Assembly: GCA_046046455.1 (NCBI GenBank)
Contig: JBJOJS010000116.1
Span: 8,202-72,201, forward strand
Origin: Actinomycetota bacterium
GTDB lineage: Bacteria > Actinomycetota > Actinomycetes > S36-B12
DNA length: 64,000 nt
Direction of reading: 5' to 3'
The notes below the pieces were generated by a model. That model saw only the letters and a program-made list of their open reading frames with translations, was not told where the DNA came from and searched no databases. Positions 42,347 to 62,986 of the stretch are shown one piece after another (position 1 is the first letter of the stretch; every line of letters begins with the position of its first letter). A program made the position numbers and the translations under genes.

Positions 42347-43267
42347 GTGCTCCTCGATCCCGAAGACGTCATCCGCGAGCCCGGCCCCTGGGCTCACCGA
42401 GACGTCTCCGCCAACGGAGCGCGCTTCCACATCGTCGAGGCAGGCGAGGGTCCGCTCGTCGTACTCCTGCATGGCTTCCCGACCCTGTGGTGGTCGTGGC
42501 GCCGCCAATTGCGCTCCTTCGCCGAAGCGGGTTACCGGGTGGTCGCCATGGACCTGCGGGGCTACGGAGGCTCAGACCACACGCCTCACGGCTACGACCC
42601 CACGACGCTGTCTCGTGACGTGGCCGGGGTCATCCGCAGCCTCGGTGAGCCTTCCGCAACCGTCATCGGCCACGGCTGGGGCGGCCTGATCGCCTGGAGC
42701 ATGGCGATCCTCGACCCCGACGTGGTCGATGCCATCGTGCCCGTCTCCATGCCCCATCCGCGGAGATTCCGCGCGGCGATCGTGCGTGATGCGATCCAGC
42801 GTCGTCAGGCGCTCTACGCCGTGGGCTTCCAGTGGCCCTTCCTCCCCGAGCGCTCGCTCATGGCGGATGACTGCTCGCGAGTGGGCGAGATCCTCGAGTC
42901 GTGGTCCGCGACACCCGGCTGGCCAGACGCGGAGACATCACTGGCCTACCGGTCGGCATTCTCGCTGTGGCCGACCGCGCACTGCGCGGTGGAGTATCAC
43001 CGCTGGGCACTGCGATCCCTCGTGCGCACTGACGGCATCCGCTACTCGCACCGGATGGAAACGCCGATCGAGGTGCCTGTGCTGCACATCCACGGCGCGC
43101 AGGATCCCTCCGTGCTCCTGCGCAGCGCTGAGGGCTCGGGCGAGTGGGTCGCGGGCCCCTACGACTTCCACATCATCGACTCCGTGGGCCACTTCCCCCA
43201 TGAGGAGGCACCTGAGGTCTTCGATCCGATCGTGCTGAAGTGGCTCGCCGGCCTGCCGCGTGCGTGA
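42347..43267 (+). CDS. Alpha/beta hydrolase, epoxide hydrolase-like (Rv3670-like)
   Basis: LLHGFP, DLRGYGGSD, GHGWGG, GHFPHEE. Confidence 0.85.
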   Translation: MLLDPEDVIREPGPWAHRDVSANGARFHIVEAGEGPLVVLLHGFPTLWWSWRRQLRSFAEAGYRVVAMDLRGYGGSDHTPHGYDPTTLSRDVAGVIRSLGEPSATVIGHGWGGLIAWSMAILDPDVVDAIVPVSMPHPRRFRAAIVRDAIQRRQALYAVGFQWPFLPERSLMADDCSRVGEILESWSATPGWPDAETSLAYRSAFSLWPTAHCAVEYHRWALRSLVRTDGIRYSHRMETPIEVPVLHIHGAQDPSVLLRSAEGSGEWVAGPYDFHIIDSVGHFPHEEAPEVFDPIVLKWLAGLPRA

Positions 43268-43632
43268 TGCGACCGCGCGACCGGTTGGGGCGACCGCTGG
43301 CCTGGGACGCGGTCGGCTTCCCCGGTGTGGAGCAGCGCGATCGCATCACGTCTGATGCCGCCGTATCTGAGGCTGTCGACTACCTCGAGCGCGGGCTGCC
43401 CTTCCACGCGCACGAGGTGCTCGAGATGCGCTGGCGTTGCTGTCCCGTCGAGGAGCGACCGCTGTGGCGTGGACTCGCGCAGGCCGCTGCGGGTGTCACG
43501 CACGCCGCACGCGGCAATCCCGTCGGTGCCGAGCGCCTCATCGCCCGCGGGCGCACGAGCATCGAGGAGTACGCCGGATCCCTGGACGCGGCGACGCGTG
43601 ATCTGGTGGCTCAGCTCACCCAGGTCGACTGA
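43267..43632 (+). CDS. DUF309 family protein
   Basis: RPRDRLGRPL, PFHAHEVLE.RW, LWRGLAQ, RGNPVGA. Confidence 0.8.
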   Translation: MRPRDRLGRPLAWDAVGFPGVEQRDRITSDAAVSEAVDYLERGLPFHAHEVLEMRWRCCPVEERPLWRGLAQAAAGVTHAARGNPVGAERLIARGRTSIEEYAGSLDAATRDLVAQLTQVD

Positions 43633-43669
43633 CAGGCCAACCTGGCGGGTGCGACAGCGATGTAGCGCC

Positions 43670-43718
43670 CAACTTCGAGCGGAGAAGGTAGGAAAACGAC
43701 CTTCTCCGCTCGGAATTC
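43670..43718. repeat. 49-nt palindromic element, copy A
   Basis: Perfect 14-bp arms CGAGCGGAGAAGGT / ACCTTCTCCGCTCG. Confidence 0.8.
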
Positions 43719-43767
43719 ATCTACCGCACGCCGACTGACCATGCGCTCGTCGCAAGGATGCGCGTGA

Positions 43768-44949
43768 TCACCGGCAGCGTCCGGTGTCGACGGACTCGAG
43801 GGCAACGGCGCCGATCCGAGCAAGCGGCGTGGCCTGCTCAGCGGTGATGGCGTAGCCGGTCTCCTCCTCGCCGAGTCCCGCGGCGAAGACGACGCCGTAG
43901 ACGCGCCCATTGGGGGCGAGCAGGGGACCCCCGGAGTTGCCCGGGACCACGGTGCCCCTGAAGGAGTACACATCGCGCACGACTCCCGATCGCCCGTAGA
44001 TGTCCTCGCCGCGGGCATCGATGCGATCGCGGATGCGCGCCGCCCCCGCCTGGAGGTCGCCGCCTCCGGGGAAGCCGGCGACAACCGCGCCGTCACCGGT
44101 CTCCGCGGGCCGCGTAGCGAAGGCGAGCGGTGGAGCGGGGAGTCCCTCAACACGGAGCACGGCCAGGTCGATACGCGCGTCGATGGCTACCACCGTCGCC
44201 GGGTAGCTCGCCGGATCCCCCGGGATGCGCACGCTGGGCTGATCCGAGCCAGCGATGACGTGCGCATTGGTCAGGATGCGATCGGGTGCGTAGGCGAAGC
44301 CCGAACCAGTGACCACGGCATCGCAGGCAACCGCGGTGACCTTCACGAGTGACGGCCAGGAGGCACGCACCGCCGGATCTCGGAGGAGGCGCTCATTGGG
44401 CGCGGGCACCTGCGGTCCGGCGTACTGCCCCAGGCCGGAGAACACCCGGGGTAGGCCCGACGCGTCGACGGCATTGCGCAGGCCGGAGAAGAGATCGCGC
44501 GCCTGGTCGGGAACGGCGGAGTCCAGTGTCCGCAGCAGCAGCGACGAGCGGACCTCCCGCGCGACCGACAGGCTCGGCACGAGACCGACGGCCATGGCGA
44601 TGATCCACAGCACCACAGCGAGGGCGACCACGTTGAGGGCCGCTCCCGCGGCGCTATCGACGACCTGGACACCCTTCGCTGTCATGGCCGACCGCAGCCG
44701 ACGGCCCAGGAGGGACGCGAGCGTCTGGCCGACGAGCGCCGCGAGGAGGATCGCCGTGGCGAGCAGGAGTGGACCGAGTGCTCCCGGGAGATCGCGACCT
44801 TCGAAGGCCCGGGGCAGCAGCAGCGCGGCAGCGAGGGCGCCCACCAGGAAGCCCCCGAAGGACAGCAATCCCGCTACGAAGCCCTGACGCCATCCGGTCC
44901 ACGCGAAGACGACGAGCGCCGCGAGGACGATGGCGTCGACGAGGTTCAC
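43768..44949 (-). CDS. marP: MarP-family membrane serine protease
   Basis: N-terminal TM domain (GWRQGF), GSGF, TNAHV, DLAVL, GNSGGPL; GTGA overlap with the upstream gene. Confidence 0.88.
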   Translation of the reverse strand: MNLVDAIVLAALVVFAWTGWRQGFVAGLLSFGGFLVGALAAALLLPRAFEGRDLPGALGPLLLATAILLAALVGQTLASLLGRRLRSAMTAKGVQVVDSAAGAALNVVALAVVLWIIAMAVGLVPSLSVAREVRSSLLLRTLDSAVPDQARDLFSGLRNAVDASGLPRVFSGLGQYAGPQVPAPNERLLRDPAVRASWPSLVKVTAVACDAVVTGSGFAYAPDRILTNAHVIAGSDQPSVRIPGDPASYPATVVAIDARIDLAVLRVEGLPAPPLAFATRPAETGDGAVVAGFPGGGDLQAGAARIRDRIDARGEDIYGRSGVVRDVYSFRGTVVPGNSGGPLLAPNGRVYGVVFAAGLGEEETGYAITAEQATPLARIGAVALESVDTGRCR

Positions 44950-45623
44950 AGGTCGGCGTCCTCGGTGAGATCGACGATGCGATCGGGATCCCACGGTCGC
45001 GCCCAGCCTGCGAGGTCGAGCAGGCCGCTGATGAGGCCCGCGGTGAATCCCCACACGACGAGACCGGCCACGTCGAATCCCATGCCGACGTACCCCGACG
45101 GATGCCGCACGCGCATCCGGCGGGCGGGATCGGCGAGTTGGTCGATGGGCACGCGGTGGACGCTTGCCACCTCCGTGGGATCGGCGACGCGCACCGGCGA
45201 CGGCTCTCGCCACCACGCGAGTACGGGCGTCACGATGAAGTCGCTCACCGGGACCCAGAGGTCAGGCAATAGTGCGAAGGGCTCCACGCCGGCGGGGTCG
45301 AGCGCGGTCTCCTCCTGGGCTTCGCGCAGGGCCGCCTCGATCGGTCCGCGGTCACCCGGCTCCAGCGCCCCGCCCGGGAAGGCAGGCTGCCCCGCGTGCG
45401 AGCGCATGTCGTGAGCGCGCTCGATCAGCAGCAGGTCCGGGCCGTGATCTCCTTCGCCGAGAAGCATGAGGACGGCGGATGGGCGGCCACCGGTGGGCGG
45501 GGGAAGGAAGCGGGTGAGATCCGATCCCCTCACGCCTTCGGTCGCTCGGGCCACGGGGCGCAGCCAGTCGGGCAGGTCAACGCCGGGGAGAGCCGCCCCG
45601 ATATCAGGATCGCGGCCGATCAT
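44946..45623 (-). CDS. Nudix CoA pyrophosphatase
   Basis: [30 protein letters not shown] overlap with nth. Confidence 0.88.
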
Positions 45624-46279
45624 GCTCGGACTCCGTCGCGAGCGGGAGCTCCAGCGAATGACGGGCACAGTGATGCGAGCGGGCATGTATCGCAGGCCGG
45701 CTTGCGGGCATGGCACACGCGTCGTCCGTGCAGGATCATGCGGTGGGACAGGTCGGTCCACTCGGACGGCGGGAAGAGGCCCATGAGATCGGCCTCGACC
45801 TTGTCGGGCACGGTCTGCTCCGTCCAGCCGAAGCGCCGGGCCAGCCTGCCGACATGGGTGTCCACGGTGATGCCCGGGATGTCGAAGGCATTGCCGAGGA
45901 CGACGTTGGCCGTCTTGCGGCCCACCCCGGGCAGTGCCACGAGTTCCTCGAGCGTGCCGGGCACCTGACCGCCGTGGCGCTCGCACAGGACCTGGGCAAG
46001 TCCCTGGATGCTCGCGGCCTTGGACCGGTAGAGGCCGATCGACTGGATGAGGGACTCCAGCTCTGCCCGGTCGGCGCCGGCGTACGCGGCGGCATCGGGG
46101 TAGCGCGCGAAGAGTGCCGGGGTCACGGCATTGACGCGCTCATCGGTGCTCTGTGCCGAGAGGACCGTCGCGACGAGGAGCTCCAGCGGGGTGGTGTAGT
46201 CGAGCTCGGTGTCGGCCTCCGGATACGCCTCGGCCAGGACGCGGCCCATGCGGCGGGCCAAGCGGGCGGCATCGGGCAC
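45620..46279 (-). CDS. nth: Endonuclease III
   Basis: LSAQSTD, Hh[18 protein letters not shown], Cys4 cluster C-x6-C-x2-C-x5-C. Confidence 0.95.
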
Positions 46280-46333
46280 CCGGCCAGGGTACGTCGCGGA
46301 GCACTCTCAGCCCTCAGGGCTGGAGCAAAGGGG

Positions 46334-46382
46334 GTTCTTTGCCCGGAAACCGCTACCGGGTGACGCTTTCCGGGCAAAGAAG
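46334..46382. repeat. Palindromic element, copy D, between divergent nth and crp
   Basis: Perfect 15-bp arms TTCTTTGCCCGGAAA / TTTCCGGGCAAAGAA. Confidence 0.75.
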
Positions 46383-46463
46383 TCGCGATGAACGTTGCGG
46401 CACATCTCCTCCCTGCACGGGCACCACACGCACCCATACGTCAGACTGTGACGAGGAGGTTCC

Positions 46464-47138
46464 GTGGACGACGCACTCATGCAGGCACCGCTCTTCTCGG
46501 CACTCGATGCCGAGGCTGCCGCGGCGCTGCGCGCCTCGATGGCCGAGAAGCGCGTGCCCCGCGCGGGCGTGATCTTCTCCGAGGGTGAACCGGGCGACCG
46601 GATGTACGTCATCCTCGACGGCAAGGTCAAGCTCGGTCAGACCTCCCCCGACGGCAGGGAGTCCCTGCTCGCCGTGCTGGGGCCGGGCGAGGTCTTCGGC
46701 GAACTCTCGCTCTTCGATCCCGGTCCGCGCACCGCGACCGCCACGGCCGTGACCGACACGGTCGTCGTGGGACTCGGCCATGCCGACCTGCGCCCCTGGC
46801 TCACCGGTCGCCCCGAGGTCGCCGAAGCTCTCCTCCAGGCACTGGCTCAGCGGCTGCGTCGTACGAATGAGGCCCTCGCCGATTTGGTCTTCTCCGACGT
46901 GCCCGGTCGTGTCGCCAAGCAGCTGCTGGAGCTCGCCGACAAGTTCGGTCAGCCGGGGCCCGACGGCGTGCTCGTGCACCACGACCTCACGCAGGAGGAG
47001 CTCGCGCAACTCGTGGGAGCGTCACGCGAGACCGTCAATAAGGCACTGGCGGACTTCACCGGCCGCGGCTGGATCGAGGTCGATCAGCGCCAGGTGCTGC
47101 TCATGGACATGGAGCGCCTCGCGCGGCGAGCCCGCTGA
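46464..47138 (+). CDS. crp: Crp/GlxR family cAMP receptor protein
   Basis: FGELSLFDPGPRT, DVPGRVAK, HTH LTQEELAQLVGASRETVNKAL; AGGAGG RBS. Confidence 0.95.
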   Translation: MDDALMQAPLFSALDAEAAAALRASMAEKRVPRAGVIFSEGEPGDRMYVILDGKVKLGQTSPDGRESLLAVLGPGEVFGELSLFDPGPRTATATAVTDTVVVGLGHADLRPWLTGRPEVAEALLQALAQRLRRTNEALADLVFSDVPGRVAKQLLELADKFGQPGPDGVLVHHDLTQEELAQLVGASRETVNKALADFTGRGWIEVDQRQVLLMDMERLARRAR

Positions 47139-47163
47139 GCGAGTGGAGCGCCTCGCGCGCCAC

Positions 47164-47212
47164 GAACGTCGAGCTGAGCAGGTCGAAAAGTGACCTCATG
47201 CGCTCGAAGTTC
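47164..47212. repeat. 49-nt palindromic element, copy B
   Basis: GAACGTCGAGC ... GCTCGAAGTTC with inner AGGTC/GACCT; 36 of 49 positions identical to copy A without gaps. Confidence 0.75.
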
Positions 47213-47267
47213 CCCGTGATGAAGGCTTTTCCGTTCCGATAAGCCTCGATAACCGGGACGTCGACTC

Positions 47268-48074
47268 TCAGCCGCGGCCGTCGAGGTAGGCGAGCTGAGC
47301 ACGCGTGCTCAGAAGGGCCGCCCAGCGCACCGCTTCGGGAATGTCGTCGTACACCGCATCGACGACCTCCTCGGGTGTGCTCGCTCCCTCAGCGACCGCT
47401 GTGCGCACCTGATCGAGGCGGGCATGACGATGGTCCAGATAGGCATCGATCACGCCGACAGGATCTCGGAGCACAGGGCCGTGGCCGGGCAGGATCGCGA
47501 TCGCCTCGCTCGCCTCCGCACGCAGGCGCAACGCCGCGAGGGAGTCGAGGTAGTCGCCGAGGTGGCCGTCAGGCCACGCCACGACTGTGGTGCCCCTTCC
47601 GAGGACCGTGTCGCCGGTGAGAAGTGCACCGTCGCGCGGCAGATGGAAGCTCAGGCAGTCTGAGGTGTGCCCGGGTGTGGCGATCACGTGGATCTCGTCG
47701 GTGCCGGCGACCACGACATCACCCGCACTGAGTCCCTCGCCTCCCAGGACATGTCCGGGATCGAGCGCGCGCACGGGCGCTCCCGTCATCTCGTGAAGAC
47801 GGCGGGCACCCTCCGCGTGATCGGGATGCCCGTGGGTCAGCAGGATCTGCACGACGCGCCCCTCGGCCGCGTCCACGATCGCACGCAGGTGGGACTCGTC
47901 ATCGGGGCCAGGATCGATGATGACCATGACGTCGCCCGGCTGGCCGACGAGCCAGGTGTTGGTGCCATCGAGGGTCATCGGGCTCGGGTTGGGTGCCAGG
48001 AGGCAGGTCACCGTCGCACTGAACGCGCCCCCAGTCCACTGTTCGTCGGATCCGATGACGGGCAGGCCGCTCAT
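47268..48074 (-). CDS. Metallo-beta-lactamase fold hydrolase
   Basis: NPSPMTLDGTN, THGHPDH, TPGHT, TGDTVLG, PGHG. Confidence 0.9.
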   Translation of the reverse strand: MSGLPVIGSDEQWTGGAFSATVTCLLAPNPSPMTLDGTNTWLVGQPGDVMVIIDPGPDDESHLRAIVDAAEGRVVQILLTHGHPDHAEGARRLHEMTGAPVRALDPGHVLGGEGLSAGDVVVAGTDEIHVIATPGHTSDCLSFHLPRDGALLTGDTVLGRGTTVVAWPDGHLGDYLDSLAALRLRAEASEAIAILPGHGPVLRDPVGVIDAYLDHRHARLDQVRTAVAEGASTPEEVVDAVYDDIPEAVRWAALLSTRAQLAYLDGRG

Positions 48075-48931
48075 GCGCCAGCCACCTCGGATCCGGCCGG
48101 CTCAGCCGGCAGGCGTACGACGACCGAGCCATCGCGTACGTCGATCACGTCCCAGGCGATGGCACCGTCATCGTCGAAGCGCGGGCGCGGCATGAGAGGG
48201 CGCACGTCGCGATCCGCCGCACTCGCGATGACGCTCGCCACATCCGGCAGCGCGGCCAGGTCCGCAAGCGTGGCGACAGTCGGGGGCAGCATGGGCAGGC
48301 GACCGCGCGCGTAATCACCGAGGGCCACGGACGGGGATGTCCACACGACCTGATCGGCCTCACCACTCACATCGCGGGCACGCTGACCGGGGGGCACGGC
48401 CGCCACGAAGAAGCGCACGTCGTACCTCTTGGACTCCACCTCGGGAGTGACCCAATGCGTCCACAGCGGGAGCAGTCCGGGATCGATGCGCAGGCGGCGA
48501 CGTGCGAGCACCTGCGCGAGAGCGGGGCTCGACTCGGTCACAGCCGCGCGATCGTCCTCCCAGCCATCGTCCTCCTCAGGCACGCGACCCGAGTCATCGA
48601 CGGCGAGGAGTACGCCGGTCTCCTCGAAGACCTCGCGCACGGCACCGACGATGAGGCCGCGCGCCTGGCGATCCGACGCCGTCATGCGCCGAGGGTCCAC
48701 GGGCAGCCCGGTCCAAGGAAGGTCCATGTCCGCATCGGAATCGTCGATGCGGCCTCCAGGGAAGACGTACATCCCCGCGGCGAAGGCCATGGTCGCCGCG
48801 CGGCGCATGAGGTAGGTCTCGAGCACGTCGGCGTCGCGCAGGAGCACGACTGTGGAGGCATCCCGCACGGGAGGCGGTTGCCACTCTCCGGCGAGAAGAG
48901 CGCGGGCGCGCTCTCTCACCTCGGGCGGCAT
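48071..48931 (-). CDS. Nudix hydrolase
   Basis: ASTVVLLRD, VFPGG, VREVFEETG, HWVTP, RYDVRFF, MLPPT. Confidence 0.88.
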   Translation of the reverse strand: MPPEVRERARALLAGEWQPPPVRDASTVVLLRDADVLETYLMRRAATMAFAAGMYVFPGGRIDDSDADMDLPWTGLPVDPRRMTASDRQARGLIVGAVREVFEETGVLLAVDDSGRVPEEDDGWEDDRAAVTESSPALAQVLARRRLRIDPGLLPLWTHWVTPEVESKRYDVRFFVAAVPPGQRARDVSGEADQVVWTSPSVALGDYARGRLPMLPPTVATLADLAALPDVASVIASAADRDVRPLMPRPRFDDDGAIAWDVIDVRDGSVVVRLPAEPAGSEVAGA

Positions 48932-48942
48932 GCGGGGGATGC

Positions 48943-49404
48943 TCAGTCGGCGACCTCCAGCACCATCTCCACCTCGACGGGGGCGTTGATGGGCAGGCCG
49001 GCGACCCCGACGGCAGAGCGAGCGTGACGGCCGGCATCGCCGAACACCTCGAGGAGCAGCTCACTCGCACCGTTGATGACAGCGGGCTGGGCTGTGAAGC
49101 CGGGAGCGCTGGCCACGAAGCCCACCACCTTCACGACGCGGGTCACGCGATCGAGCGACCCGATGACCGACTGTGCGGCGGCGAGGGCATTGATCGCGCA
49201 CTGGCGCGCACAGTCCTTGGCCACCTCGGGATCGACGTCGGAGCCCACGAGGCCCTCGGCGATCATCACGCCGTCGCGCATGGGTAACTGCCCCGACGTG
49301 TAGACGTGGCGGCCGGTGACGACCGCGGGCACGTACGCCGCGACGGGAGGCACCACCTCGGGGATGACGATCCCGAGCTCGGCGAGGCGTGCGGTGTGAG
49401 ACAT
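48943..49404 (-). CDS. RidA/YjgF family protein
   Basis: AAYVPAV, TSGQLP, NGASELL, HARSAVGV..LP..APVEVE; start ATG 49404. Confidence 0.9.
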   Translation of the reverse strand: MSHTARLAELGIVIPEVVPPVAAYVPAVVTGRHVYTSGQLPMRDGVMIAEGLVGSDVDPEVAKDCARQCAINALAAAQSVIGSLDRVTRVVKVVGFVASAPGFTAQPAVINGASELLLEVFGDAGRHARSAVGVAGLPINAPVEVEMVLEVAD

Positions 49405-49562
49405 CACTGCTCCTTGGGGCGCTTGAGGTAGGCGACGACGTTCTCGGCATTGGGGCCCGGGACGACCTGCACGAGCTCCCAGCCGTCCTCCCCCCACGTG
49501 TCGAGGATCTGCTTGGTCGCGTGAATGAGCAGGGGCACGGTCGCGTATTCCCACCGGGTCAT
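49404..49562 (-). CDS. DUF4177 small protein (52 aa; below the ORF-track cutoff)
   Basis: Manual translation MTRWEYATVPLLIHATKQILDTWGEDGWELVQVVPGPNAENVVAYLKRPKEQ; leaderless signature. Confidence 0.88.
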   Translation of the reverse strand: MTRWEYATVPLLIHATKQILDTWGEDGWELVQVVPGPNAENVVAYLKRPKEQ

Positions 49563-49632
49563 GGCCCGACCCTAGTACGGCGTACCGCGAGGACAACCGG
49601 GGTGATCCTGTCCGGCGGACTAGGCTCGGGCG

Positions 49633-50607
49633 GTGCCCTCGACCGACTGGCCCGACGTGCTCCTGCACGTGGTTTCCGGCAAGGGTGGCACGGGCAAGAC
49701 CACGGTGGCTGCCGCGCTGGCTCTGGCGCTCGCACGCGACGGGCGCCACGTGATGCTCATGGAGGTCGAGGGGCGTCAGGGTCTTGCCCAACTCTTCGAC
49801 ACTCCACCGCTGCCCTACGAGGAGCGCAAGCTGGCCTCGGCTCCCGGAGGTGGTGAGGTCTGGGGACTCGCCGTGGATCCCGAGGAGGCGCTGCTCGAGT
49901 ACCTCGAGCTCTTCTACAACCTTCGCCGGGCAGGTGGCGTGCTGCGCCGCATGGGTGCCATGGAGTTCGTCACCACCATCGCTCCCGGCCTACGCGACGT
50001 GCTCCTCACCGGCAAAGCCGTCGAGCTCGTCCGTCGCCGCGACAAGAAGCATGCCCGCGCGTACGACGCGATCGTGCTCGACGCACCCCCCACGGGACGC
50101 ATCACGCGCTTCCTCAACGTCAACACCGAGATCGCCGGCGTCGCCAAGGTCGGCCCGATCCGCAATCAGGCGGACGGTGTGATGGCCGTGCTGCGCTCGG
50201 ACAAGACCGCGGTGCATCTCACGACGCTACTCGAGGAGATGCCGGTGCAGGAGACCGCCGACGGTGTGGCCGAGCTCGAGGACGCTGCTCTCCCCGTCGG
50301 CGGGATCGTCGTCAACATGACGCGGCCTCCGCTTCTGCCCTCGATGGCTGCACTTACGTCGGTGGACGCCACCTCCCTCGAGGGATCACTGCGCACCGCA
50401 GGGATCGATGCGTCCTCGCGCGTCGTCGAGGCACTCCGGGCCGAGGGCGCTGACCATGCGGCACGCGTCGCACTCGAGGAGACCGAGCGCGCACGCATCG
50501 CCGCACTGGGGCGTCCTGTCTACGAGCTCCCGTTCCTCGCAGGCGGGATTGACCTCGCCGCGCTCTACGAGTTGGCCGACATGCTCCACGAGCAGGGCAT
50601 GGCCTGA
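49633..50607 (+). CDS. ArsA/Get3-family ATPase (Rv3679-like)
   Basis: SGKGGTGKTT, TIAPGLRDVLLTGK, DAPPTGR, LEEMPVQET. Confidence 0.88.
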   Translation: MPSTDWPDVLLHVVSGKGGTGKTTVAAALALALARDGRHVMLMEVEGRQGLAQLFDTPPLPYEERKLASAPGGGEVWGLAVDPEEALLEYLELFYNLRRAGGVLRRMGAMEFVTTIAPGLRDVLLTGKAVELVRRRDKKHARAYDAIVLDAPPTGRITRFLNVNTEIAGVAKVGPIRNQADGVMAVLRSDKTAVHLTTLLEEMPVQETADGVAELEDAALPVGGIVVNMTRPPLLPSMAALTSVDATSLEGSLRTAGIDASSRVVEALRAEGADHAARVALEETERARIAALGRPVYELPFLAGGIDLAALYELADMLHEQGMA

Positions 50608-51752
50608 TGCCCACGGCCCCCGCACTCGATATCGATGCGCTGCTGCGCGATCCCGCGACGCGGACCATCGTGTGCTGCGGCTCGGGCGGCGTCGGCAAGA
50701 CCACTACAGCGGCTGCGCTGGGACTGCGCGCAGCGGAGATGGGACGACGCGTGTGCGTCCTCACCATCGATCCCGCACGCCGTCTCGCGCAGGCCATGGG
50801 CCTGAACGAGCTGGACAACACTCCCCGTCCAGTGATCGGTGTCGACGGCGACGGCTCGCTCAGCGCGATGATGCTCGACATGAAGCGGACCTTTGACGAG
50901 GTCGTCGAGTCCCATTCCGACCCCGATCGCGCCCAGGCCATCCTCGACAACCCGTTCTACCAAGCGCTCTCGTCGTCGTTCGCCGGCACGCAGGAATACA
51001 TGGCCATGGAGAAGCTCGGCCAATTGCGCACCGAGGCCGATCGCGACGGCACCTGGGACCTCATCGTCGTCGACACTCCCCCCTCGCGCTCCGCGCTGGA
51101 CTTCCTCGACGCGCCGGACCGACTGGGCACCTTCCTGGACGGCCGCTTCATCAAGATCCTCACCGCGCCGGCCCGTGGGGCCGGGCGTGGGATCGGCAAG
51201 ATCCTCGGCGCGGGACTGGGCATCTTCTCCGGGGTGCTCACCAAGATCCTCGGTGCTCAGTTGCTCACCGACCTCGCTGCCTTCGTGGGCGCTGTCGACA
51301 CGATGTTCGGTGGCTTCCGGGAGCGTGCGGAGGCGACGTACGCGCTCCTCAAGGATCCGGGCACGTCGTTCATCGTCGTCGCTGCCCCCGAGCGCGACGC
51401 GCTGCGCGAGGCCTCGTACTTCGTCGATCGCTTGGAGCAGGACGGCATGCCGCTCGCGGGTCTGGTCCTCAATCGCGTGCAGGAGGTCCGCGCGCCCGAG
51501 CTGAGCGTCGAGGAGGCCATGGCGGGCATGCAGCGCCTGCAGGGCGACGACCCCGCTGCCGCAGCGCTCCTGCGCCTACACGCCGATCGGCTGCGCAATT
51601 CCGAGCGCCAGGCGCGGCTCGCGCGAAGGTTCACCGCGGCGCATCCGGGAGTGCCGGTCACGGAGGTCTACGCGCTGGCCGAGGACGTGCACGATCTCGA
51701 GGGTCTCCGCGAGGTGGGCGCGCTGCTCGCCTCCGCCCAGCCGAATCCCTAG
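50607..51752 (+). CDS. ArsA/Get3-family ATPase (Rv3680-like)
   Basis: CCGSGGVGKTT, TIDPARRLA, EYMAMEKL, VDTPPSRSALDFLDAP. Confidence 0.9.
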   Translation: MPTAPALDIDALLRDPATRTIVCCGSGGVGKTTTAAALGLRAAEMGRRVCVLTIDPARRLAQAMGLNELDNTPRPVIGVDGDGSLSAMMLDMKRTFDEVVESHSDPDRAQAILDNPFYQALSSSFAGTQEYMAMEKLGQLRTEADRDGTWDLIVVDTPPSRSALDFLDAPDRLGTFLDGRFIKILTAPARGAGRGIGKILGAGLGIFSGVLTKILGAQLLTDLAAFVGAVDTMFGGFRERAEATYALLKDPGTSFIVVAAPERDALREASYFVDRLEQDGMPLAGLVLNRVQEVRAPELSVEEAMAGMQRLQGDDPAAAALLRLHADRLRNSERQARLARRFTAAHPGVPVTEVYALAEDVHDLEGLREVGALLASAQPNP

Positions 51753-51776
51753 GCAATCGTGCGCGCGCGGTGTGTC

Positions 51777-51825
51777 GAACTTCGGGACGAAAGTGGCCCT
51801 CCGCGGTGCTTTCGTCCCTAAGTTC
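51777..51825. repeat. 49-nt palindromic element, copy C
   Basis: GAACTTCGGGACGAAAG / CTTTCGTCCCTAAGTTC, one mismatch. Confidence 0.8.
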
Positions 51826-51891
51826 GGGGGCGGTGCGCTTCGGGGGGGTGCTCTGTGGGGGGGGTGCTCTGTGGGACTGGTGCGGTGGGGT

Positions 51892-52200
51892 CTACGACGC
51901 GCGGAAGACGTCGATGCCGACCGCGCGCTCGTACTCATCGCGCGCCGTCTGGAGCAACTGGCGCCACGAGGTGACCTGGGGGCGACGTCGCAGGAGTGCG
52001 CGACGCTCGCGCTCGGTCATACCGCCCCACACGCCGAACTCGACTCGGTTGTCGAGGGCATCGGCAAGGCATTCGGTGCGCACCTGGCAGCCCTGGCAGA
52101 TGACCTTGGCACGGTTCTGGGCAGCGCCTTGGACGAAGAGGGCATCGGGGTCGGATGTGCGGCAGGCCGCCCGCGCGGTCCACTCCGTCGACCAGGTCAT
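51892..52200 (-). CDS. whiB4: WhiB-family Fe-S regulator, WhiB4/WblA type
   Basis: Four Cys, DPDALFVQGAAQNRAK, EFGVWGGMTERERR; divergent from the PBP gene. Confidence 0.9.
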   Translation of the reverse strand: MTWSTEWTARAACRTSDPDALFVQGAAQNRAKVICQGCQVRTECLADALDNRVEFGVWGGMTERERRALLRRRPQVTSWRQLLQTARDEYERAVGIDVFRAS

Positions 52201-52428
52201 CCCTCACCTTCCCGCCGCCCCGTCCGGCACGGCTTTCCCTCGGGTCCCAGTGGCTTCACCAGTGGGGCGGGACGCTACGCCGCTCCTCCGTGGTGAGACA
52301 GGTCCCTATGACCCTAACCTAGTTAGTTCTTTTGGGCCATACTCTCCCGAGATACTGACCTCTTCGAGACGAGACTCCCGCCACGCACTCGCCTACCCTG
52401 GTACGGCACGTCTTCCCTGAGGAGTCCC

Positions 52429-54759
52429 GTGAGCGAGCCACTCACGCCCCCCGAGCCCACCCGGGCCCGCGGTGCGGCGGCGCGACCCCTGGCCGCGCTC
52501 GGTCGCCTCGGTGTCTTCCTCCTCGTGGCGCTGGTCGCCGGTGCCGTCGCCGCCGCCATGGTGCTTCCCGTCGCCGCCGCTACCGGACTTCTCACACGCG
52601 GCGCCATCGACAGTTTCGAGTCACTGCCGTCCCAACTCGACGCACCCGACCTTCCTGAGCGCTCGGTGATCCTCGCGGCCGACGGCTCGGTGATGGCCAC
52701 CATCTACTACCAGAACCGCGTGGAGGTGCCGCTGAGCGCAGTCGCACCGGTGATGCGCCAGGCCATCGTCGCCGTCGAGGACGCGCGCTTCCTCGACCAT
52801 CCCGGCATCGACCTGCGCGGCACGATGCGTGCGATCGTCGCCAACAGCACCCAGTCGAGTGGCACGCAGGGCGGCTCGACGATCACGCAGCAGTACGTCA
52901 AGAACCTCCTCATCGCAAGTGCCACCAATGAGGAGGAGCTCGAGGCCGCACGCGCACGTACGCCCTCCCGCAAGCTCCGCGAGATCCGCTATGCCCTCGC
53001 GCTCGAGCGCCGCTACTCCAAGGAGGAGATCCTCGAGCGCTACCTGAACATCGTTTACTTCGGGGCCGGCGCCTACGGTGTGGAGGCCGCGGCCCGCCGG
53101 TACTTCTCCAAGCCCGCCTCGGAACTCAATCTCGTCGAGAGCGCCACGCTCGCAGGCATCGTGCAGCAGCCGACGGCCTTCGACCCCACACGCAACCCCG
53201 AACTCGCCGAGCAGCGCCGTGACCTGGTCCTCGGCGAGATGGCGGAGGCGGGCTTCATCACCCCGGTCGAGGCGAGCGCAGCGGCTCGCGTCTCCCTTGA
53301 GGGGGTCCTCGATCCCTCCATCCAGCCCAATGGATGCACCTCGTCGTACGCACCGTATTTCTGCGACTTCGTCATCCGCATGATCAAGGCCGACCCTGCC
53401 TTCGGCGAGACCCTCGTCGAGCGCGAAGCACTCCTACGCCGGGGTGGGCTCACGATCCGCACGACGCTCGATCCGGACGTGCAAGACGCGGCCATGAAGT
53501 CCGTGACGTCGTACATCCCGATCAAGGATCCAAGTCAGCGCGCCGCCGCGATCACTCTCGTCGAGCCAGGGACCGGCAACGTCATCGCCATGGCTCAAAA
53601 TCGCGAGTGGGGCCTCAAGGGCCGGGGCAAGACCACCTACAACTACAACGTGGATGCGGGCTTCGGCGGCACGATCGGCATGCAGGCAGGATCCACCTTC
53701 AAGGTCTTCACCCTGGCGGCAGCACTGGAGCAGGGCTTCTCGCCCATGGAGGGCATCGACTCGCCCAACCCGAAGACCTTCGAGAACTTCGTCAACTGCA
53801 CCGACGGAACGAAGTTCCAGCCGGTGACCGTGCGTAACTCCGGGTCAGCGGGCTTCCTCAACATGTTCCAGGCGACGGCTTTCTCCACCAACACCTACTT
53901 CGTCACGCTCGCGGAGCGCTTCGGGCTGTGTCGACAGGCCGAAATCGCTGAGGAGATGGGGGTGCGCCTGGCTACGGGCGATCCGCTGCTGCGGGTGCCG
54001 ACGTTCTCACTGGGCACCATGGAGGTCTCTCCCCTCTCCATGGCGGGCGCGTACGCCGCGTTCGCGAATCACGGCACCTACTGCCAGCCACGCGTCGTGC
54101 TGGAGATCACCGATCGCTACGGAAACAACCTCGATGTCCCGGATCCCCGATGCCGGGAGGTCATCTCGCGCAACGTGGCCGACGCCGTGACCGGTGTGCT
54201 CACCAATGTCATCGACGGACCCTTCGAGGGGCGCACCGGTGGACTCATGTCGCTGCCCGACCGCCCTGCCGCGGGGAAGACCGGCAGTACCAATGAGAAC
54301 GCTGCCATCTGGTTTGCCGGCTACACCCCGCAGATCGCCGCTGCCGTCTGGGTGGGCGATCCGCGTGGCGGCTTCGCCTACCCCATGACCGACGTGACCA
54401 TCAATGGCACGTACTACTCCTACGTCACCGGCGGGCAGATTCCCGGTCCGATCTGGCGCGAGACGATGATGGCCGCACACGCCAACCTTGCGCCGCAGGC
54501 ATTCGAATTGCTCAACGAGTGGGGTATCGGGCCGGTGCGCGGCGTCGGCCCCTCGCCTGTCTACATCCCCTTCGCCCTGCCGCAGCCGGAGGAGCCCCAG
54601 GAGCCGAAGCCGGAGGAGAGTCAGAAGCCGAAGCCGACGCCCGGTCCGGGTCCGGGTCCGCAGCCGAGTCCGCAGCCGACACCGGAACCGACGCCTGAGC
54701 CGAGTCCGACACCGGAGCCGACGCCTGAGCCGAGTCCGGAACCCACCGAACCGGGTTAG
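52429..54759 (+). CDS. Class A penicillin-binding protein (PonA2-like) with a Pro-rich tail
   Basis: EDARF, QGGSTITQQ, YLNIVYFG; STFK, STN, KTG. Confidence 0.92.
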   Translation: MSEPLTPPEPTRARGAAARPLAALGRLGVFLLVALVAGAVAAAMVLPVAAATGLLTRGAIDSFESLPSQLDAPDLPERSVILAADGSVMATIYYQNRVEVPLSAVAPVMRQAIVAVEDARFLDHPGIDLRGTMRAIVANSTQSSGTQGGSTITQQYVKNLLIASATNEEELEAARARTPSRKLREIRYALALERRYSKEEILERYLNIVYFGAGAYGVEAAARRYFSKPASELNLVESATLAGIVQQPTAFDPTRNPELAEQRRDLVLGEMAEAGFITPVEASAAARVSLEGVLDPSIQPNGCTSSYAPYFCDFVIRMIKADPAFGETLVEREALLRRGGLTIRTTLDPDVQDAAMKSVTSYIPIKDPSQRAAAITLVEPGTGNVIAMAQNREWGLKGRGKTTYNYNVDAGFGGTIGMQAGSTFKVFTLAAALEQGFSPMEGIDSPNPKTFENFVNCTDGTKFQPVTVRNSGSAGFLNMFQATAFSTNTYFVTLAERFGLCRQAEIAEEMGVRLATGDPLLRVPTFSLGTMEVSPLSMAGAYAAFANHGTYCQPRVVLEITDRYGNNLDVPDPRCREVISRNVADAVTGVLTNVIDGPFEGRTGGLMSLPDRPAAGKTGSTNENAAIWFAGYTPQIAAAVWVGDPRGGFAYPMTDVTINGTYYSYVTGGQIPGPIWRETMMAAHANLAPQAFELLNEWGIGPVRGVGPSPVYIPFALPQPEEPQEPKPEESQKPKPTPGPGPGPQPSPQPTPEPTPEPSPTPEPTPEPSPEPTEPG

Positions 54760-56206: not shown

Positions 56207-56280
<74 letters not shown>

Positions 56281-62701: not shown

Positions 62702-62732
62702 CCGGTCACCCTAGTCCGGGGATGGGACATGA

Positions 62733-62822
62733 GGGGACCCCCCGCACACCCGACAGAGCCTGCCTGCCCTTGCTGCCTTCCGGCCCTGGGGGATTCAGCA
62801 GGGTGCCGCCGCGCGGGGGGTC
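62733..62822 (-). ncRNA. ffs: Signal recognition particle RNA (small 4.5S type)
   Basis: Minus strand carries helix-8 motif CAGGGCCGGAAGGCAGCA inside a long hairpin closed by GACCCCCCGC/GCGGGGGGTC; TAGACT -10 at 62834-62829; upstream of dnaX. Confidence 0.92.
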
Positions 62823-62859
62823 GGGACGAGTCTACGCCGCGCTTCCCGGGGCCTCGATG

Positions 62860-62901: not shown

Positions 62902-62986
62902 CGGAGGATAGGGGATTTGAACCCCTGAGGGATTGCTCCCAACACGCTTTCCAAGCGTGCGCCCTAGGCCACTAGGCGAATCCTCC
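62902..62986 (-). tRNA. tRNA-Ser (anticodon GGA); CCA not encoded
   Basis: GGAGGAT acceptor stem; CACGC-TTGGAAA-GCGTG anticodon arm; long variable arm; GGTTCAAATCC. Confidence 0.97.

Follow-up and report, generated by a model that had tools for sequence, protein, structure and literature searches.

The DNA analyzed here (the window; 64,000 nucleotides, positions 8202-72201 of contig C31) belongs to G000, a genome assembly of an uncultured actinobacterium, 2.95 Mb in size and 94.8% complete; the sequencing runs that hold G000 are freshwater metagenomes. Among the matches listed, the closest relatives of G000 proteins were labelled Nanopelagicales or Actinomycetota. The window carries four 49-bp palindromes, A, D, B and C (Table 1), and this study concerns these elements and the nuclease genes with which their family is associated. 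A, B and C lie between convergent genes and D between the divergent nth and a Crp/Fnr-family gene, as stated in a preliminary description of the window. Rechecking also bore out the coordinates and gap-free 49-nt register given there, the shared G8, GA13-14 and C42, the CTT at positions 4-6 and AAG at 44-46 (each in three of the four elements), and the 36/49 identity between A and B. The outer 24 positions form 18 (A), 20 (D), 16 (B) and 18 (C) Watson-Crick pairs, all four elements fold as hairpins of -11 to -20 kcal/mol (DNA parameters), and an Rfam search gave no match at any of the four sites. Four copies in 8.2 kb constitute a mild cluster (18/3000 placements). A, D and B were bridged by contigs of sequencing run X2, and C by those of run X1 alone, which may be the source. 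Immediately after element C, a short tandem repeat with a G-rich unit occupies positions 51826-51880.

Table 1. Features of the window; subtypes of the palindromes are named after the nuclease gene cassettes described in the text.
Feature	Position in window	Description
Element A	43670..43718	49-bp palindrome, subtype of the C19 cassette
Element D	46334..46382	49-bp palindrome of an orphan subtype with 13 copies; no partner gene found in G000
Element B	47164..47212	49-bp palindrome, C19 subtype
Element C	51777..51825	49-bp palindrome, subtype of the C26 cassette
tRNA gene	56207-56280	ordinary
Small SRP RNA gene	62730-62825	ordinary
tRNA gene	62902-62986	ordinary

The four elements are members of a genome-wide family. 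A scan of the whole of G000 for the end motif with symmetric arms, at total lengths of 30-70, found 23 hits of 49 nt. Lengths 47, 48 and 50 had no hit, and no other length exceeded five. An iterated profile combined with a symmetry score detected 49 copies above the cut-off of 26 and three more above a looser cut-off of 22 (52 in total), the maximum in the reversed genome being 17.6; at least two copies (C87:104682 and C142:19117) were missed by this score. Both the further copies and the length peak that the preliminary description had proposed to look for are thus present, the peak being at exactly 49 nt. According to a home-made gene caller (2770 genes), 48 of the 49 copies are intergenic, at 22 tandem, 20 convergent and 6 divergent junctions, and convergent junctions, which make up 15% of all junctions, hold 20 of these 48. 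The copy ends are symmetric, with no GTAG or CGTC tag in the profile or the flank composition. Flanks are shared between copies at chance level, except for the pair C2:34806 and C73:7065, which is similar on both sides.

The enrichment between convergent genes would be expected if the copies were ordinary intrinsic terminators or RNA-stabilizing hairpins, and the copies may have some side effect on transcripts. Terminators of actinobacteria are often devoid of a U-tract, and none of the 49 copies has one. Nevertheless, the fixed length, the sequence subtypes and the six copies between divergent genes argue against such an origin, as do the lack of G-U strand bias (31 G-T versus 28 A-C mismatches on the transcribed strand in tandem contexts), the absence from most orthologous junctions and the bracketing of one gene family (see below), making it extremely unlikely. 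The earlier judgement that simple termination does not explain the elements also holds in the window itself, where positions 43000-52500 contain no terminator-like site (1.3 expected) and none of the four elements has a U-tract. As the primary explanation, the intrinsic terminator is largely refuted.

The partner genes were found outside the window. G000 has DUF559 matches at eight places, and tblastn raised the number of paralogs to 12, of which 11 are also hit by AbiEi_4. Four of them (C65, C14, C19 and C26; 42-58% identical) each stand between two 49-nt copies, spaced about 1.05-1.14 kb apart in the four cassettes. The bracketed genes match the domain profiles AbiEi_4 and DUF559/MTES_1575, and downstream of the nuclease gene there are only the second palindrome and host genes. 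Five other paralogs (C102, C68, C106, C114 and C2) are bracketed by other palindrome pairs of approximately 37-78 nt, with roughly 4-13 matching places each in G000. Clustering the 49-nt copies by subtype placed the flanking pairs inside the clusters: 16 copies group with C26, 8 with C19, 13 with C65 and C14, and 13 D-type copies with no cassette of this genome. A is identical at 35/49 positions to both C19 flanking copies and at no more than 27 to others, B at 35-37/49 to the C19 copies, and C at 39-40/49 to the C26 copies. D reaches at most 32 with any G000 cassette. The orphan D subtype predicted a missing partner, and a search of 29 genomes of the genus located the cognate cassette in G184 (C368), where two D-type copies, to both of which D is identical at 39/49 positions, surround a nuclease gene. 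This cassette occupies the locus at which G000 has its C65 cassette, with 86% and 80% identity in the flanks and 58% between the proteins. For each of the 13 D-type copies in G000, it is a closer match than any cassette of G000 itself. By these sequence comparisons, the D-type copies in G000 are best read as orphans left after cassette replacement; the alternative is a partner gene present in the genome but unassembled. The association of the 49-bp palindromes with genes for AbiEi-fold, Vsr-like nucleases we regard as close to certain. The preliminary description was therefore right that the enzyme is encoded elsewhere, but this enzyme is a predicted AbiEi-fold, Vsr-like nuclease rather than the HUH/RAYT type suggested there. 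Its single REP-like family of fixed length was likewise correct as to dispersal and length, but the four elements fall into three subtypes with different partner genes.

Y1_Tnp (PF01797) and the AbiEii toxin (PF08843) had no matches in G000, the only IS110 match (C6:51050) lies on another contig than the window and away from the copies, and two GIY-YIG matches, both in frames of 600+ aa, are also away from them. The nuclease had no phage match and three matches in plasmids, these in the nuclease domain only. Insertion sequences are known to target REP sequences (PMC1525189), and with an IS110 gene in the genome the palindromes might be miniature non-autonomous elements of an unrelated transposase or recombinase, which the nuclease gene targets or on which it hitch-hikes. 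Such an origin is very unlikely, given that the IS110 gene is not near any copy, that Y1_Tnp is missing from a genome of this completeness, that target duplications are lacking, and that every subtype tracks a different nuclease paralog.

The partner protein is roughly 300 aa long. In the alignment-based structure model (pLDDT 86; a single-sequence fold with pLDDT 46 was set aside), residues 2-198 align with AbiEi 6y8q (Z 8.8, rmsd 6.7, 177 aligned), and this AbiEi-like part gave Z 6.7 against Rv2827c. Residues 6-187 match PADLOC AbiEi profiles in 16 of 18 members. The Vsr-like domain of the model, residues 201-308, gave Z scores of 13.9 to 3hrl, 12.8 to I-Bth0305I and 11.0 to Vsr. E206, D239, E250, D252, H257 and D266 are invariant in 18/18 members, and this acidic/His set appears comparable to the EDxHD set of PMC3239194. 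Pairwise identity is 66-88% in the nuclease domain and 31-74% in the DNA-binding part. According to the model, the partner is a full AbiEi-fold DNA-binding protein fused to a predicted Vsr/DUF559-type nuclease domain.

The operator of AbiEi is a perfect 11-bp inverted repeat with a spacer of N27, extending to 23-N3-23, that is, 49 bp (PMC3985639). It is bound by two monomers (PMC7319586), and AbiEi is an autorepressor (PMC7319586, PMC3985639). The 49-bp layout of the copies matches this operator geometry (11-N27-11; 23-N3-23), the operator sequence being unrelated. Arm symmetry in the copies is 0.87 at positions 1-11 and 0.61 at positions 12-23, and across all copies positions 2, 3, 9, 10 and 11 covary (0.90-0.98 versus 0.39-0.58 in shuffled data). 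When subtypes are taken separately, symmetric deviations in the inner arms number 23, where about 29 would be expected; in the outer arms, symmetric change is in excess only for the C26 subtype (8 versus 2.6). The self-complementary differences that the preliminary description had taken for covariation therefore exist, but they are mostly differences between subtypes, with no compensation inside a subtype. Because the inner arms lack compensatory change, double-stranded binding sites are favoured over folded hairpins, and on sequence evidence the symmetry reads better as two protein half-sites in duplex DNA than as stem covariation.

Should the protein instead read a folded single-stranded hairpin, it might cut incoming or replicating single-stranded DNA, like SsnA at NTS, and modulate gene transfer. 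The repeat-gene-repeat layout is the same as that of NTS-ssnA-NTS (PMC11893778), the four elements do fold, and the excess of symmetric change in the C26 outer arms points in the same direction. A hairpin reader, however, need not fix the total length to the base, the N-terminal fold is that of a known binder of duplex inverted repeats, and the inner arms show fewer symmetric deviations than expected. Vsr-type domains cut at distorted DNA, which would suit a hairpin substrate. On balance we consider hairpin reading unlikely.

The four window junctions were compared in 18 congeneric genomes, wherever anchors were found. No 49-nt element occurs at the junction of A in any of the 11 relatives with both anchors, nor at that of B in 16 anchored relatives. 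The junction of D is filled in G005 only, of 15 anchored relatives, and that of C in G002 and G007 of 17; in G005, G008 and G018 the junction of C is an 11-nt spacer. Their absence from most orthologous junctions speaks against vertically conserved ordinary terminators, a possibility raised in the preliminary description. Filled alleles are approximately 74-78 nt longer than the nearest empty alleles, a surplus from which part of the flank may move together with the site. At the same window junctions, palindromes of other families are found in several relatives. Unrelated palindromes occupy the junction of A in four relatives (G006, G007, G008 and G017), while most other relatives have 15 nt or less there, suggesting that such junctions collect palindromes repeatedly.

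The cassettes themselves vary among relatives. The nuclease gene is present at the C19 locus in about 20 genomes, with the cassette in one orientation in 14 and in the opposite orientation in five (G011 is probably a sixth, with a suspect duplicated flank), and the palindrome sequence differs by protein clade. In G015, it is the C26 cassette that is inverted. A clean empty C19 site is present in G010, and its sequence recurs on either side of the cassette of G003 (20 bp). In G012, the same locus holds one palindrome with the outer flanks of the cassette of G016, as recombination between two copies would leave. The gene at the C14 locus of G000 shares 96.6-97.4% identity with its counterparts in three other species, while most flanking genes are 84-91% identical, and the step in identity sits at the palindromes. 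DUF559 genes at large were reported to be enriched in predicted programmed inversions (odds ratio 14.3; PMC9881135). At L048 (G011:C133), roughly 200 bp from the end of one and the same host gene is found inverted on both sides of the cassette, which is either an assembly artefact or an inversion trace.

These comparisons also bear on whether the proteins could be domesticated regulators or chromosome-organizing factors, with the copies as operators of a regulon and the nuclease not a spreader. AbiEi is an autorepressor, as mentioned above, and the gene has long been resident at the C19 locus. Among 114 loci, a CTGTGGAY motif lies between the upstream palindrome and the start codon at 65 in forward and at 16 in reverse orientation; for 104 controls, the counts are 2 and 6. 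This motif, which we take to be DnaA-box-like, therefore has 81 calls at the 114 loci against 8 at the 104 controls, and its presence upstream of most genes would fit a regulatory or organizing role. Against such a role, no promoter is expected at the 20 of 48 intergenic copies that lie between convergent genes, the sites are not conserved among congeneric species, a second copy stands downstream of each gene, and the catalytic-type residues are invariant. A regulatory or chromosome-organizing role seems quite unlikely. The RNA run X4 contained 0.07 of the words and is uninformative on expression.

AbiEi_4 + DUF559 genes are common in actinobacteria, with at least 529 confirmed relatives. Of 108 homologous loci examined (with a few duplicates among them), 102 had enough flank, and a repeat common to the upstream and downstream flanks was found at 75 of them compared with 1 of 84 control positions. 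The loci include records of Mycobacteriaceae, Micromonosporaceae and Jatrophihabitantaceae. A wide set of 114 loci, after duplicate removal, yielded 126 flanking palindromes that passed the filter; 100 of these are odd-centred, and their symmetry falls off beyond 24 bases from the centre. Position 8 is G in 88% of the odd-centred palindromes and position 5 is T in 72%; at the 44 loci outside the genus set the values are 86% and 58%, compared with 32% and 18% in 77 other palindromes of G000. The bases at positions 5 and 8 were not used for selection, and kin among the loci are not independent. Judged from these sequences, the register is family-wide beyond the genus set. In a family survey of 71 genomes, 11 had the GAAC-type pattern, 13 a close nuclease and seven both; all surveyed genomes with four or more copies carry the nuclease gene. 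Mycobacterial stem-loop families, listed without sequence or partner in PMC2267715, may in part be related to the present palindromes.

G000 contains at least five further dispersed palindrome families, each matching the flanks of its own nuclease paralog; two of these families are of 64 nt, with approximately 12 matching places each. Two representatives of other families lie in the window. A 78-nt palindrome at positions 10690-10767 matches the pair around the nuclease paralog on C114, and positions 47241-47262, adjoining B, contain what remains of one arm of yet another palindrome family, resembling G000:C40:32929-32986 and the flanks of C106. Sequence related to this remnant arm occurs at the junction of B in G002, G005 and G008.

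Taken as a whole, the reading in which the 49-bp palindromes are duplex binding sites of AbiEi-fold, Vsr-like nucleases that spread them is, in our estimation, somewhat better than an even bet. Spread by the enzyme is suggested by the patchy presence of the sites and by the co-occurrence of copies and genes. Duplex binding by two protein copies is likely by analogy, nuclease cutting at or near the site is plausible, and spread of copies by repair and recombination is plausible. Two protein copies would dock on two half-sites, as AbiEi does on its 49-bp operator, and this would account for the invariant length as well as for the outer 11 bp being more symmetric. A nick or cut made by the nuclease domains, at the site or close to it, would come next, and the break would be repaired by host recombination. 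Cassettes in solo, inverted or swapped form would arise when recombination runs through the sites, and new single copies might be seeded when a fragment bearing a site is occasionally captured illegitimately; these copies would persist as orphans once their cassette is replaced, as may be the case for D. Enzyme and repeat would then form a selfish and partly domesticated partnership, working in the manner of REP/RAYT and Ssn/SRM but with an enzyme of a third class. A bolder version, which we put forward only tentatively, has a widespread actinobacterial selfish element made of an antitoxin DNA-binding fold, a 49-bp operator and a homing-endonuclease-like domain, which cuts its own operators, inverts, excises and replaces cassettes and seeds private copies, each paralog rewriting its own address. 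The paralogs would then constitute a natural collection of nucleases whose recognition sites are long and distinct.

A number of observations weigh against the reading in which the palindromes are binding sites spread by these nucleases. Three of the 12 paralogs (C83, C34 and C73, the last with a split frame) have no clear palindrome pair, and five further paralogs have palindromes of about 37-78 nt. Of the 126 flanking palindromes of the wide set, 26 are even-centred. The GAAC-type pattern is lacking in six of the 13 surveyed genomes with a close nuclease, and three genomes without one have a single pattern hit each, one of them a good palindrome. The AbiEi operator differs in sequence from the copies and the agreement of 49 with 49 could be coincidence; with some 60 bp or more between its end and the likely start codon, the upstream copy may also lie outside the core promoter, unlike the abiE operator. 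A search for a protein-DNA code was negative: overall correlations were 0.13-0.20, and partial correlations did not exceed 0.26 and peaked away from the predicted recognition helix. Around single copies, direct repeats that would indicate target-site duplication are no longer than in mismatched controls (1/49 excepted). The junctions are not clean, and the relatives are too distant (74-84% identical) for clean ones to be obtained. Since the inverted C19 cassettes examined form one clade, the five or six inversions may be a single event, and since the C19 protein tree largely follows the species tree (G004 and G002 are out of place), movement would be rare. An assembly collapse or a binning error could account for the solo form in G012, the regions being mostly 95-100% identical. 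Finally, empty, inverted or circular forms at the window elements and the C19 cassette were not found in contigs of four runs, which drop rare variants and so cannot show the absence of alternative forms.

AbiEi_4 + DUF559 genes have no known function, and the present analysis links them to a candidate substrate. A precise and cheap test is offered by one 49-bp candidate site for each paralog, for which the genome itself supplies natural non-cognate controls. If the proposed partnership is correct, a class of intergenic palindromes in actinobacteria would have its origin explained, and RAYT and Ssn would be joined by a third type of enzyme partnered with repeats. It would also suggest a route by which the autoregulation module of a toxin-antitoxin system can turn into a mobile element. 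A full-text literature search, with most subscription papers and supplements outside its scope, found no paper linking the protein family to flanking palindromes, and the palindrome-bracketed AbiEi-Vsr system is undescribed in the literature searched.

Four known systems share parts of this organization. Like the REP/REPIN-RAYT systems (REPtrons and TIRtrons; PMC3116915, PMC3733652), it comprises dispersed intergenic palindromes, several enzyme-repeat pairs per genome, and a single-copy enzyme gene bracketed by its own repeat type that is mostly inherited vertically with some transfer. Unlike them, it has no HUH/Y1 enzyme and no GTAG/CGTC tag, its unit is one fully symmetric 49-bp site instead of a tagged REP/REP doublet, and copies number in the tens rather than the hundreds. 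The Ssn GIY-YIG nucleases with their NTS/SRM repeats (PMC11893778) show the same repeat-nuclease gene-repeat order, dispersed copies and many private pairs. However, Ssn is a small single-domain GIY-YIG enzyme that cuts single strands at an oriented 28-nt hairpin, whereas the present protein is an approximately 300-aa combination of predicted AbiEi and Vsr folds and its palindrome is non-oriented and fixed in length. With AbiEi of AbiE, a type IV toxin-antitoxin system (PMC3985639, PMC7319586), the system shares the predicted fold of residues 2-198 and the 49-bp inverted-repeat geometry, in which symmetry is highest over the outer 11 bp. It differs from AbiE in that no AbiEii toxin gene was found in G000, a nuclease domain is fused, the operator sequence is unrelated, and sites stand on both sides of the gene and are dispersed genome-wide. 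I-Bth0305I (EDxHD) and Vsr (PMC3239194) have the same predicted catalytic-domain fold and a comparable E-x-D...H...D set, and I-Bth0305I also has a DNA-binding domain tethered to the nuclease, to which the signs of allele replacement at one locus may be added as a likeness. Here, in contrast to I-Bth0305I, there is no intron or intein, an AbiEi fold takes the place of the NUMOD repeats, and the presumed site persists on either flank of the gene instead of being destroyed by insertion. The palindrome-nuclease system thus falls outside REP/RAYT and Ssn/SRM on account of its enzyme, and it is not an AbiE toxin-antitoxin pair.

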